A stretch of DNA of 7,573 nt from an uncultured archaeon (GTDB taxonomy: Archaea; Asgardarchaeota; Lokiarchaeia; Sigyniarchaeales; Promethearchaeaceae). Numbering within the stretch: position 1 is the first letter of the stretch; each line of letters opens with the position of its first letter. A program made the translations under genes and the position numbers. Of this stretch, positions 2,871 through 7,450 are shown in pieces. Under the pieces are notes generated by a model that was given only the letters and a program-made list of their open reading frames with translations, searched no databases and had not been told where the DNA came from. The stretch covers positions 1 through 7,573 of the forward strand of contig CAYRPF010000109.1 in the NCBI GenBank assembly GCA_964426185.1. The letters run 5' to 3'.

Positions 2871-4283
2871 TTACTCTCCATTAATAAGTTGTGCTGGATA
2901 ATACAGCGTTTTTCTGCCCTTTTTTTCACTAACGATAATTTCTGCATCTAAAAGCTTATCTATATGGTATTTCACGGTCTTATGGTCCAAATCCATCCGA
3001 TGTGCAATCTGTTTTTGGAATATACCAGGATGGTCGTGAATAATTTGCATAATTTCTAATGTAGTTCGGCTTTTTTGCACTGCAGGATCTAGTTTTGCAA
3101 CGGGATTTTTCTCATAGTATGGATAATACACCAAGTACTGTCCCATTCTTTGTTTTCGAACAACTTTGAATGTTTCCAAAATATCCAAATGCCACGCAAG
3201 ATTTCCAGCAGATAATCCCGTTTTGCGCAAAATTTCGTTGAAATGAACTCCAGGTTCATACAAAACTATTTCTATAATTTTATTCCTATTCTCATTTTCT
3301 AATACATCCTCCATCGAAAGCCTGTGAGCACCTTTATCAATATGCAGTACGCGATTTAGGAGAAAGTGGCGATATTCTTGTGAACTCATCAAAATGCCAA
3401 ATAACAAAACTACTATGACAATCCCAATTAGGATAATCCAGAAAATTTTTAAATTCGTAGGAGAAAAGAGGGAACTTTCTTCCAATTTTACAAGGGTAAG
3501 CGTAAAAATATTGGGTATTTCAGATTGATCTGAGTCGAAAGTAAATGCAATTCCGTTCTCTATTGGCTCTGAATTGAGGGAAATCCATTCTTGATTTTCT
3601 GGAACATATATTGCCCATAGATATTTTGAGAAATCTTTTACTACACCAAAATCTGAGTAGTTAAGTAAGGTATATACTTCTAAAGAATCTAATTTCTCTG
3701 GTTCTACTGAAACAGTAAAATAAGTAACGAATTGAAAATTAGGATCTAAAGTTAAATAGTCATCGGTTGAAGAAGCACTAGGTTTTACAAGAAGCTTAGA
3801 TGTTTGGTAAAGGGATTGAGAGATAGATTGAGGAATAGATTTAAAAATATTTTCAATATTTGATGGAGAATAGGATTCATTAAGCGTATTTGTGCTTCCT
3901 TTTTCTTGATTTGATTTTTTTCGGAGAGTAGTTTTTATTGGATGTTCAAATTTACTAAGATAATCTATTTTAACGCTTGTATTGTCGGTATTGTTTATTT
4001 TCATACCAAAAAATCGGTTTATAACATTCTCATCGTAGGAAATCGAAAAATTTACTCCATGCTGAGCTTGTAGTTCAAAAGAAAGATTATTTCCAAATTG
4101 ATAGCGAGATGGTTTTTGTGAACCATGCTGTTGATTCCCATTAAAATTTCCAGGATTATCTGGAGGTCCTTGAGCAAAAATCTCTGTAAAAGAACTAAAA
4201 ATAGAGAGAAAAACAATAGTAAGAACAAGCAAGACATTCATTCTTTTTTTAAATTTTCGCCAAAGAGATTCCATGATACTCAA
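2871..4283 (-). CDS. Membrane-anchored transcriptional regulator: N-terminal signal/TM, ~240-aa ectodomain, one TM, tandem winged-HTH domains (COG3398-like)
   Basis: Basic then hydrophobic N-terminus ending IFA-QG; TM at aa 280-299. Two wHTH repeats: VLENENRNKIIEIVLYEPGVHFNEILRKTGLSAGNLAWHLDILE...YYP and TLEIMQIIHDHPGIFQKQIAHRMDLDHKTVKYHIDKLLDAEII...YYP. Six N-x-S/T sequons lie before the TM and none after. Start may be TTG 4283, ATG 4274 or ATG 4241. Confidence 0.9.
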   Translation of the reverse strand: MSIMESLWRKFKKRMNVLLVLTIVFLSIFSSFTEIFAQGPPDNPGNFNGNQQHGSQKPSRYQFGNNLSFELQAQHGVNFSISYDENVINRFFGMKINNTDNTSVKIDYLSKFEHPIKTTLRKKSNQEKGSTNTLNESYSPSNIENIFKSIPQSISQSLYQTSKLLVKPSASSTDDYLTLDPNFQFVTYFTVSVEPEKLDSLEVYTLLNYSDFGVVKDFSKYLWAIYVPENQEWISLNSEPIENGIAFTFDSDQSEIPNIFTLTLVKLEESSLFSPTNLKIFWIILIGIVIVVLLFGILMSSQEYRHFLLNRVLHIDKGAHRLSMEDVLENENRNKIIEIVLYEPGVHFNEILRKTGLSAGNLAWHLDILETFKVVRKQRMGQYLVYYPYYEKNPVAKLDPAVQKSRTTLEIMQIIHDHPGIFQKQIAHRMDLDHKTVKYHIDKLLDAEIIVSEKKGRKTLYYPAQLINGE

Positions 4284-4312
4284 TTAAATGATTTTAGTAT
4301 ATCTTATTCAGT

Positions 4313-4330
4313 AAGAAAAGAAAAAATAAA
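4313..4330 (-). terminator. Oligo-T tract downstream of the surface-protein gene (candidate terminator)
   Basis: Minus strand reads TTTATTTTTTCTTTTCTT, about 70 nt after the 4402 stop and about 30 nt before the regulator start. Confidence 0.35.
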
Positions 4331-4401
4331 TTTCGCTTATTTATTTCGGTTAAGGTAAAATTTTACACTTGATTTCATCGGCAAATTGATATTTTCATTA
4401 C

Positions 4402-5097
4402 TTAATTACGTTTTCTTCTCAAGACAAAAGAAATAAAACCAATTGCAATTACTGAAGGTACACCTATCCAGAGATATCCTGGAATAGAAATGTTATCAGA
4501 GGATTCTTCTCTGGTAAGAATAGTCCATGATGAGAAATGATCCGTCATTGCGACCAACATTCCGTTTTCATAATTACTCTCAACAGGAACCCATTCTTCT
4601 TCTGCTTCATCATAATATGCCCAAGTTGAATTCGATTCTTTCATTTTTAAAGCCAGACGAGCTTGCAAAGAAACCGATTCATTTAGACTTACATTGATCA
4701 TAAATTGTTCTTGATAACGATACTGCATGCGGTTTCTATTTTGCACTATACTACCATTGGTTAATCCAATATCACTATTTTCAGTTTGAATTGTCATTTC
4801 TGCTTGAATAGATTCGCTGATATTTAGTTCCATTTCAAATTCACGATCTGCTAAACCCGGATCATCGCAATTAATGCTTAAATTTAAGGTTTGATTAACA
4901 CGCATTTGCATTTGAAAGCGATTTTGGAAAGTGAATCGATTGGTTGAATTTCCCACTAAAGTTCCTTGGTGTTTGTTTCCACCAACATTTATTTCATTTG
5001 GTCCACCTTGTGCAGCTACATATTGTGCGGTTAAAGCGGAGATAATGAACACGCTAAAAATGGCCATAATTAATAATCCACGGGTGATTTTCTTCAT
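4402..5097 (-). CDS. Cell-surface glycoprotein with signal peptide, HFS-motif beta-rich domain and IPGY-TM-basic (Loki-CTERM/PGF-CTERM-like) sorting tail
   Basis: MKKITR plus a hydrophobic stretch and VAA-Q cleavage site; nine N-x-S/T sequons in about 175 aa; WAYYDEAEEEWVPVES...TDHFSSWTIL; IPGY (4485-4474) then a TM and RRKRN; SD-like GAAGTGA upstream. Confidence 0.88.
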   Translation of the reverse strand: MKKITRGLLIMAIFSVFIISALTAQYVAAQGGPNEINVGGNKHQGTLVGNSTNRFTFQNRFQMQMRVNQTLNLSINCDDPGLADREFEMELNISESIQAEMTIQTENSDIGLTNGSIVQNRNRMQYRYQEQFMINVSLNESVSLQARLALKMKESNSTWAYYDEAEEEWVPVESNYENGMLVAMTDHFSSWTILTREESSDNISIPGYLWIGVPSVIAIGFISFVLRRKRN

Positions 5098-5227: not shown

Positions 5228-5755
5228 ATGAGTAGATTACTGGATTTTTTAAAACGCAATAAGTATTTTTTATTGGCCCATCACCCAAAATGTGATAAAT
5301 TTCAAGATGATACAATACAAATTAAGAATACTCAGCTGTGTATCGGGTGTTTTGTCGCCATTCCCATGTTTTTCATCACTCTAACTGTAGGCGTATTTAG
5401 TCATCTTTTTCCAAATCTTTCGATAAAAACACTTCTAATTACAAGCGGAATTCTAACTTCGGGTTATTTAATTGGAAAAATACCGTTTAAAATCCATAAA
5501 ATCGTAAAAATTGTTTCAAAAGGAATGGTCGGAACAGGCGGGGCATTTTTAGTAGGAGTTTTATGGCATTTCCCTTTTTCGCCCTTCGGCCGTTTTCTTC
5601 TCGTATTTGTGATTTTAGAATTTGCTTTTTTGGGTCATGGAATACTTCGGGCAATTTCGATCTATAGAACTTGCAATAAATGTCCCTTTCATTTTGAATG
5701 GAAACGATGTCCTGGAATGAATGAGATAACTAGCCAATTAGATAAAGGATTTTAA
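5228..5755 (+). CDS. Hypothetical ~4-TM membrane protein with Cys/His clusters at both ends (loosely DUF2085-like; probably metal-binding)
   Basis: HHPKC-x15-CIGC before TM1 and CNKC-x8-CPG after the last TM; ATG start; 175 aa. Confidence 0.8.
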   Translation: MSRLLDFLKRNKYFLLAHHPKCDKFQDDTIQIKNTQLCIGCFVAIPMFFITLTVGVFSHLFPNLSIKTLLITSGILTSGYLIGKIPFKIHKIVKIVSKGMVGTGGAFLVGVLWHFPFSPFGRFLLVFVILEFAFLGHGILRAISIYRTCNKCPFHFEWKRCPGMNEITSQLDKGF

Positions 5756-6844: not shown

Positions 6845-7450
6845 ATGGAATTAAAAAGAATAAATGAAATCTGGCCTAAAATCGGTGGTTTTCTTGCTGT
6901 GCTTATCACTATCATCGTGATAATTTTATGGATTGGTGATAATGCAATCCCTGTACTGGCATTCATGTACTGGCTCAATTTGGCAATTCTTATGTTTCAT
7001 GAATTTGAAGAATATGTATTTCCGGGGGGATTTAAGACATTTATTAATACTAAAACTGTACTTTCACTACCGGAACCTAATAAATCAAGTCCTATTTCAG
7101 ATGGTGTTATTATAGTTATCAATTTAGGTATATGGATCGTTTTCATTATTGCAGCATTATTAGTAAATATTGCCCCATGGTTAGGATTGAGCATGGTTAT
7201 TTTTAATATAGTAAATATTGTCGGACATCTCCTTATCTTTCAAAAAAAGGTAAGAGGATACAATCCAGGCATGATCACTGCTATTCTTATGATTCCCTTT
7301 TTGGTAATTGTATTTGTAATTGTGATTAACCAAGATTTATTAACGCCTCTTGAATATGGCGTTGCAGGAATAATTGGATTTCTTTCAGGTATTTCACTTC
7401 CGATTTATGGTTCAATAATTCGGAAAACAGAAATGCTTAAGTCTCAATAA
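6845..7450 (+). CDS. HXXEE domain-containing membrane protein
   Basis: MFHEFEEYVFPGGF (HxxEE), NIVGH and YNPGMITA motifs characteristic of the HXXEE family; about 6 TM segments. Confidence 0.92.
   Translation: MELKRINEIWPKIGGFLAVLITIIVIILWIGDNAIPVLAFMYWLNLAILMFHEFEEYVFPGGFKTFINTKTVLSLPEPNKSSPISDGVIIVINLGIWIVFIIAALLVNIAPWLGLSMVIFNIVNIVGHLLIFQKKVRGYNPGMITAILMIPFLVIVFVIVINQDLLTPLEYGVAGIIGFLSGISLPIYGSIIRKTEMLKSQ

Follow-up and report, generated by a model that had tools for sequence, protein, structure and literature searches.

The surface protein described here, P0001, is encoded in a 7,573-nucleotide stretch of DNA from an uncultured Asgard archaeon of the Promethearchaeaceae (contig CAYRPF010000109.1, assembly GCA_964426185.1), referred to below as the window. 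Its closest described counterparts are the MAIN domains, microbial GAIN_B-like domains, bacterial and archaeal, that adjoin a cell-surface anchor (Brogan & Rudner, bioRxiv, May 2026, 10.64898/2026.05.12.724683). MAIN domains cut between the Phe and the Ser of a conserved HFS motif, and the resulting fragments remain associated. In Bacillus subtilis YfkN, the HF|S cut was located by Edman degradation; it is abolished by the S1346A substitution and restored by a Ser-to-Thr change, and the MAIN domain of the Streptococcus agalactiae IgA Fc receptor was likewise tested and shown to cleave. The proteins that carry these domains average 158 kDa, with adhesins, enzymes or toxins as passengers and sortase, SLH or wall-binding anchors. 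The preprint assigns no signalling role to any MAIN domain, proposes force-triggered release and does not settle whether cell physiology is influenced by the tethered stub; the text of its supplement, as far as it was accessible, contains no Asgard name (10.64898/2026.05.12.724683). Analysis of the window leads us to favour the view that P0001 is a minimal self-cleaving surface domain of the GAIN/MAIN class that works with a membrane regulator, P0002, encoded downstream. Both the chemistry and the class of domain are already familiar from the 2026 MAIN preprint and, earlier, from GAIN and FIIND. Three features are new: the lack of a passenger, the nearly constant pairing with a membrane transcription factor whose own copy of the domain is apparently dead, and a wide distribution among Asgard archaea.

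P0001 has 231 amino acids and is encoded at 4402..5097 on the minus strand, with its stop codon at 4402-4404, as given by the open reading frame list and the translation. An AlphaFold2 model, built with an alignment of 60 full-length homologues, has a predicted local distance difference test score (pLDDT) of 91.2 and consists of a single β-sandwich of 16 strands, residues 34-196 (4510..4998), resembling GAIN_B and MAIN domains, and a helix, residues 208-230, taken to span the membrane. Ahead of the sandwich lies a signal peptide-like segment, residues 1-29 (5011..5097), modelled as a hydrophobic helix at 3-29 and followed by AAQGGP; it is kept in homologues, and we infer the position of its cleavage. 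The sandwich makes up the entire ectodomain. The original prediction had described a domain with no passenger, and this description holds: the longer relatives recovered are tandem copies of the same HFS domain, and a search for longer, passenger-bearing relatives, itself weak evidence, found none.

The segment originally singled out, 4498-4623, encodes residues 159-200 and reads W-x9-W ... LVAMTD-HFS-SWTILT-REESS. The W159-x9-W169 block (4591..4623), evident in the alignment of 60, precedes H187-F188-S189 (4531..4539), the predicted autoproteolysis site, which the model places in the turn that links strands 180-185 and 190-196, the final two. The predicted scissile bond, F188|S189, corresponds to the junction of nucleotides 4534 and 4533. 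The last strand, S190-R196 or SWTILTR (4510..4530), is assigned as strand 190-196 by DSSP and is conserved as x-W-T-[VIL]-[LIV]; in the model it would remain in the sandwich after cutting and hold the N-terminal fragment. It is followed by an acidic and polar stalk, residues 197-204 (4486..4509), in which the pLDDT falls to about 60 and which is variable in alignment A1, and then by the membrane anchor (4405..4485), comprising IPGY at 205-208, a transmembrane helix at 209-226 and RRKRN. The end of the sandwich and the IPGY-transmembrane-RRKRN tail are separated by 12 residues. The position originally given for HFS, amino acids 187-189 at nucleotides 4539-4531, and the order of paired tryptophans, HFS-SWTILT, linker and IPGY-transmembrane tail are thus confirmed in the translation and the model.

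Nine N-x-S/T sequons occur in the ectodomain against 3.1 expected from shuffled sequences (P = 0.00075), and that at N139 is retained in 49 of the 60 relatives; the ectodomain holds only one Cys. The transmembrane tail, which would anchor the protein, resembles the Loki-CTERM sorting signal. Five of the 60 family members match the corresponding NCBIfam model, NF033507, weakly (best E 0.004, scoring 17.4 bits where the cut-off is 19.9), and the NCBIfam scan reported no such match for P0001 itself. The archaeosortase/exosortase family PF09721 was not found in the 92%-complete genome from which P0001 comes, a result that neither favours nor rules against processing of the tail.

P0001 is assigned to no Pfam family, the sole hit being DUF4468 at E 0.077, and ZU5, GPS and GAIN are absent from the Pfam families listed for the 60 family members. 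A profile search of PDB sequences with the family gave nothing meaningful (best E 1.1), and a search of the ESM Atlas gave archaeal clusters only, all below 0.9. Structure was more informative. Foldseek comparison of the model with the PDB returned no match below E 0.001, and the first and third matches were the GAIN domains of BAI3 and BAI2 (probability 0.97, E 0.07). An independent search of 48,161 chains with VIA placed GAIN domains in all of the first four ranks: BAI3 (Z 7.8, 126 residues aligned, root-mean-square deviation 3.5), CD97 (Z 7.2, 138 aligned), CELSR1 (Z 6.3) and CD97 again (Z 6.1). Behind these came the FIIND of CARD8 (Z 5.7), ankyrin ZU5 (Z 5.4; 5.4-5.6 over the two VIA searches) and four further GAIN domains near Z 5. 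A second VIA search, again headed by GAIN chains, added the FIIND of rat NLRP1 (rNLRP1; Z 6.4). Taken alone, the Z values indicate, moderately and not overwhelmingly, a GAIN_B/ZU5-like sandwich and do not establish homology; the match is sharpened by the fact that the families retrieved are those known to cut at an H/S-F/L-S/T turn. The suggested resemblance to GAIN and ZU5 folds was thus borne out, with GAIN domains as the best matches and FIIND/ZU5 next. The comparison with Nup98, made at the same time, is unsupported: no Nup98 chain appears among the best 50 matches listed in each of the three structure searches, although similarity is not thereby excluded.

The ranges of the alignments also bear on the site itself. 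The alignment with CD97 (model 41-198, chain 302-540) ends nine residues past the catalytic Ser, S531, which was mutated as S531A (PMC12519206), and that with rNLRP1 (model 31-198, chain 839-978) ends nine residues past S969, the FIIND being cut at F968|S969 (10.1101/2020.08.13.250241). S189 lies nine residues before model residue 198 and so is in the same register as both, the register being deduced from the ends of the aligned ranges and not from a residue-by-residue superposition.

Like the GAIN domains carried by adhesion G-protein-coupled receptors and polycystins, which provide its best structural matches (BAI3, 4dlo; CD97, 9mqr), P0001 has an H-X-S/T motif in the last β-turn, a last strand predicted to stay bound and membrane-tethered, and a juxtamembrane position. 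We take the W...W...H-x-S spacing to resemble the GPS motif of GAIN. P0001 differs in having no GAIN_A subdomain, no helix being modelled between the signal peptide and the transmembrane anchor, and no seven-transmembrane or polycystin body; it gives no Pfam GPS match, and with a single Cys in the ectodomain it can form no GPS disulfides. The FIIND (ZU5-UPA) of NLRP1 and CARD8 and the ZU5 domains of PIDD1 and UNC5CL share a similar sandwich (Z 5.7-6.4), and FIIND has the F|S cut predicted for P0001, its newly formed N-terminal strand remaining within the sheet. Those systems are cytosolic, carry UPA and a death-fold domain behind the site and become active when the proteasome removes the N-terminal fragment, whereas P0001 has a signal peptide and sequons, and in its model the chain runs from HFS directly into the transmembrane anchor with no UPA subdomain. 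With MAIN domains P0001 shares predicted secretion and surface anchoring, a β-sandwich adjoining the anchor and the conserved H-F-S in a β-turn. It departs from them in that the domain is the whole ectodomain, the large N-terminal passenger being typical of MAIN and not strictly defining, and in that a transmembrane, Loki-CTERM-like tail takes the place of the sortase, SLH or wall anchor. Its gene is, moreover, tied to a membrane transcription factor with a seemingly dead paralogue of the domain, whereas no signalling partner is known for MAIN.

The HFS triad is essentially invariant across the family. In the alignment of 60 homologues, whose mean column identity is 23%, the only near-invariant columns are F57, L148, W159, G179, H187, F188 and S189. 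The H187 column is His in 59; that of F188 contains 55 Phe, two Tyr, two Leu and one Ile and is hydrophobic in all 60; and that of S189 contains 58 Ser and two Thr, so that Ser or Thr is universal. Trp occupies position 159 in 59 sequences, and position 169 is Trp in 43 and Phe in 13. An exhaustive phmmer search over 1.84 billion representatives gave 103 matches to the family, about 90 of which, together with every domain copy of the tandem forms, contain T-[DNT]-H-F-S-x-W-T-[VIL]; HFS is kept in 12 of 12 close homologues, both copies of the two-domain forms included. Since it is conserved across homologues that are on average so dissimilar, HFS is not a mere chance tripeptide. The substitutions seen in the triad, Ser to Thr and Phe to Tyr, Leu or Ile, are limited to those permitted by the H-X(hydrophobic)-S/T rule for autoproteolysis in GAIN and MAIN domains (10.64898/2026.05.12.724683). 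Furthermore, the regulator ectodomains described below keep the fold without HFS; folding can thus proceed without the motif, and that the P0001 family nonetheless keeps it invariant argues for catalysis and not structure.

Weak profile matches point from this region to the two MAIN proteins whose cleavage was established. P0001 matches the NCBIfam model of YfkN at positions 1213-1338 of 1411 (E 0.005), and seven of the 60 family members match that model, in its C-terminal region (best E 0.0014). Seven members also match the C-terminal region of the BAC model of the S. agalactiae IgA receptor, the best being residues 161-205 of P0036, its W...HFS block, against positions 993-1037 of 1127 (E 6e-5). 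As sequence similarities, these are consistent in direction with the fold result. The original prediction had allowed that the motif might not be new, and the MAIN domains, cut at HF|S (10.64898/2026.05.12.724683), show this caution to have been well placed.

Taking these lines together, we consider it likely, by homology, that P0001 undergoes autoproteolysis at F188|S189, and the GAIN/ZU5-like self-cleavage originally proposed is supported overall. The protein would be exported, probably N-glycosylated, and its 163-residue sandwich would fold. His187 would then activate Ser189 for attack on the carbonyl of Phe188, and an N-to-O acyl shift followed by hydrolysis would cut the chain between F188 and S189. 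The N-terminal fragment, residues 30-188 (159 residues, about 18 kDa before glycans), would stay non-covalently bound, since the sandwich takes its last strand from the seven residues that open the C-terminal fragment, SWTILTR, and this strand would in turn be held to the membrane by the short stalk and the IPGY-transmembrane-RRKRN anchor. The further suggestion that loss of the fragment exposes a Stachel-like agonist is not sustained: the C-terminal fragment comprises one transmembrane helix and five cytoplasmic residues, so that the exposed strand has no receptor or seven-transmembrane target. Were the strand to signal, the ectodomain of P0002 would be its likely target.

P0002 is encoded downstream of P0001 on the same strand, at 2871..4283, starting at TTG 4283 or, more likely, ATG 4274. 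It comprises a signal or transmembrane segment, a paralogous ectodomain, a transmembrane helix and two winged helix-turn-helix domains, matching Pfam HTH_HVO_0163_N (6e-20) and HTH_24 (2e-14). The AlphaFold2 model (pLDDT 71.8) contains a sandwich at residues 45-266 with a disordered insert at 124-176, a long transmembrane helix and the two winged helix-turn-helix domains. The insert (3756-3914), of about 53 residues rich in Ser, Thr and Asn and with a pLDDT below 50, is absent from typical regulators of 415-420 amino acids. The N-terminal block matches P0001 in BLASTP (E 5e-8), and hhalign comparison of the HFS and regulator families (alignments A2 and A3) gave a probability of 99.9 and E 5.2e-31 over 220 columns extending from the signal peptide to the transmembrane helix. 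This vindicates the earlier observation that a paralogous transcription factor lies next to the surface protein. To judge from sequence, the P0002 ectodomain is a paralogue of the P0001 sandwich in which the catalytic His has been lost. MAFFT and hhalign both align N258-I259-F260 (3504..3512) with H-F-S, a triad expected to be catalytically dead. Among 174 distinct regulators, the His column contains Tyr in 75, a gap in 55, Leu in 17 and His in only six; the consensus at this position is T-[ED]-Y-[FY]-I-T, and 109 of the 117 regulators examined have no HFS-type motif in the ectodomain.

P0002 would accordingly be a single-pass, N-out/C-in tandem winged-helix transcription factor whose ectodomain is a paralogous sandwich unable to cut itself. 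Membrane-tethered one-component regulators such as ToxR, CadC and the HVO_0163 type (PF24266) are comparable, P0002 combining the HVO_0163 N-terminal helix-turn-helix with a second winged helix-turn-helix in a single-pass protein. In ToxR and CadC the DNA-binding domain is at the N-terminus, whereas that of P0002 is C-terminal and cytoplasmic, behind an N-out GAIN-like ectodomain. A functional analogue of the pair is found in the SEAL domains of RsgI anti-sigma factors, in which an extracytoplasmic self-cleaving domain belongs to a single-pass protein governing a transcription factor and force is believed to separate the fragments; these bacterial proteins differ in their SEA-like fold and in their output, intramembrane proteolysis and release of a sigma factor (PMC10556640).

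The association of the two genes extends well beyond the window. Of 71 distinct HFS genes that encode a single domain and have 700 nucleotides or more of DNA downstream, 65 precede a regulator gene on the same strand, at a median spacing of 78 nucleotides (range 49-179), and in three more the regulator is split or a second HFS copy comes first. Conversely, all 52 regulators on metagenome contigs with at least 800 nucleotides of upstream DNA are preceded by an HFS gene. The genome that carries P0001 contains a single such pair. The two proteins also occur as natural fusions. P0030, P0115, P0116 and P0117, which originate from different JGI and ENA contigs and share 80-100% identity among themselves, have an intact HFS ectodomain, 66-71% identical to the free 230-residue proteins, followed by one transmembrane helix and the same winged helix-turn-helix pair; separately, the divergent P0063 joins an intact HFS domain through one transmembrane helix to this winged helix-turn-helix pair. 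Fusions of this kind are classic evidence of joint action and support the functional link. We therefore regard a functional partnership of P0001 and P0002 as probable.

The closest homologues of P0001 carry the names Candidatus Harpocratesius, Promethearchaeota and Lokiarchaeota, which confirms the Asgard origin that had been suspected for the window. Of 301 genomes sampled across the phylum, 106 contain the family, as do 67 of 75 from the window's own order (6 of 6 and 61 of 69 in its two families), and the named hosts comprise Harpocratesius, Promethearchaeum and the Thor-, Hod- and Hermodarchaeota. A few matches from Bathyarchaeota and one from Uhrbacteria are found without a regulator.

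How the pair might work is a matter for a more tentative proposal. P0001 could be a sheddable, self-cleaving fuse and P0002 a reader whose own ectodomain is dead, the two forming an Asgard signalling device in which loss of the fragment through force, contact or surface damage switches gene expression. On the most likely logic, the P0002 ectodomain would read the state of P0001, that is, whether the complex is intact or the N-terminal fragment has been lost by force, ligand or damage, and the change of state would alter transcription. We hold this arrangement to be possible, at somewhat less than even chances.

Several observations weigh against the interpretation of P0001 and P0002 as a self-cleaving domain and its partner. 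All of the structural Z-scores are below 8, in a middling range that can reflect the common β-sandwich arrangement, and the agreement with the CD97 and rNLRP1 sites was read from range ends. The matches to the YfkN and BAC models are weak, scoring a long way under the curated full-length cut-offs, and span chiefly the W...HFS block. Cleavage in P0001, as in any archaeal member, is argued from homology, and the coupling of P0001 to P0002 and its direction are drawn from genomic context. Lokiarchaeum ossiferum encodes its regulator apart from its HFS protein, a tandem form with two HFS. Finally, the motif is no guarantee of cutting, since certain eukaryotic GAIN domains that possess an intact H-X-S/T are not cleaved (PMC13062082).

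The alternative that fares best accepts the cleavage and takes it to serve shedding alone, as in the release model for MAIN, the regulator controlling expression without sensing anything. The MAIN preprint, in proposing force-triggered release and no signalling role (10.64898/2026.05.12.724683), is the natural precedent, and tandem and Bathyarchaeota forms that occur without a regulator, together with the separation of the two genes in L. ossiferum, are what such a function would allow. P0001 has no passenger to release, however, the fragment being the domain itself. The sensor domain of the regulator is paralogous to that of P0001 (E 5e-31), the linkage holds in 52 of 52 cases, and the natural fusions place the cleavable domain directly on the regulator. 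On this evidence we think shedding alone unlikely.

A second alternative denies the cleavage: P0001 would be a stable, uncut glycoprotein sandwich, a small surface coat or adaptor protein in which HFS is kept for packing or for ligand binding. The Z-scores below 8 leave room for this, as do the presence among the structural matches of ankyrin ZU5, which is no protease, and the cleavage-resistant GAIN domains that carry the motif (PMC13062082). Three observations speak against it: the regulator ectodomains keep the fold without the His or the Ser, so that the triad is not structural; every substitution observed (Ser to Thr; Phe to Tyr, Leu or Ile) preserves catalysis; and the motif sits exactly in the last β-turn, like the proven cases. 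We judge an uncleaved P0001 to be improbable. That the domain is instead of ZU5/FIIND type, kin of the cytosolic death-fold-associated autoproteases, seems most improbable, for while the FIINDs of rNLRP1 (Z 6.4) and CARD8 (5.7) and ankyrin ZU5 (5.4-5.6) follow close behind GAIN, the F|S dipeptide is identical to that of FIIND and the parser used in the MAIN preprint itself labels MAIN domains 'ZU5' (10.64898/2026.05.12.724683), P0001 has no UPA after the site and passes straight to the transmembrane anchor, it is extracellular and juxtamembrane as GAIN and MAIN are, GAIN chains head both searches and there is no Pfam ZU5 match, and, the folds being alike, the distinction may be largely one of naming.

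Within the window, the co-oriented P0001 and P0002 genes are separated by a spacer of 118 nucleotides (4284..4401). About 60-90 nucleotides past the P0001 stop, on the minus strand, 4313-4346 contains a weak 8-bp A/U hairpin (4346-4339 with 4331-4324) and then a T-rich tract, a candidate oligo-T terminator or attenuator that could set the ratio of P0001 to P0002. The other neighbours of the pair are conserved beside it only in Ca. Harpocratesius repetitus; outside Ca. Harpocratesius it is not accompanied by any of three plus-strand genes of the window, which encode an Acyl_transf_3 membrane acyltransferase (394-1710, E 3.6e-17), a 175-residue Cys-containing membrane protein without a family (5228-5755) and an HXXEE-motif membrane protein (6845-7450, E 1.3e-16).

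Variants of the HFS protein were encountered in several other lineages. Tandem forms include P0014 (577 amino acids), P0053 (627 amino acids, three HFS) and the L. ossiferum protein at L038 2395-3588 (397 amino acids, two HFS); if every site cuts, these would be chains of domains held solely by non-covalent strand insertion. P0041 (306 amino acids) and forms of about 300 amino acids in L089, L090 and L095-L098, from Hermodarchaeota and relatives, contain, within the sandwich, some 70 residues of Cys-rich C-x-C-x-C repeat, and no regulator follows them. The divergent regulator P0063 (481 amino acids), with its intact HFS, and the free HFS protein P0061 (275 amino acids) each have 14,578 nucleotides given as the length of their longest contig, with one source in common. 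Possibly they are neighbours; the lineage would then be one whose partners are both able to cleave, a hint that the dead copy is derived. The sole bacterial match of the pattern scan, L106 2539-3537 from a Candidatus Uhrbacteria bacterium, encodes 332 amino acids with TNHFSSWTLL and has no regulator downstream. A tblastn search of the plasmid collection with P0036 gave only haloarchaeal VWA proteins in which Gln replaces His. In one of them, the 1762-residue VWA-domain protein of a Natribaculum luteum plasmid (L111 1617-6905), the W...HFS block reads T-Q-F-S-T-F-V-V-F, and to judge from sequence this internal segment of a large haloarchaeal surface protein is a relative without catalytic function.

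The pairing of an HFS protein with a regulator offers a concrete test case for the question of MAIN signalling and the tethered stub raised by the preprint (10.64898/2026.05.12.724683). The proteins are small and easily expressed, so that cleavage and binding are directly testable, and L. ossiferum, an isolate with a complete genome, possesses both the tandem HFS protein and the regulator. If P0001 and P0002 do operate as fuse and reader, this would be the first MAIN/GAIN domain tied to prokaryotic signalling, in the lineage closest to eukaryotes, and the rare lineages with fused proteins would have a one-piece receptor of the Notch or RsgI style. Because the unit is found in Asgard archaea, it bears on the origin of juxtamembrane autoproteolytic receptors, as exemplified by the adhesion G-protein-coupled receptors and by Notch-like logic.

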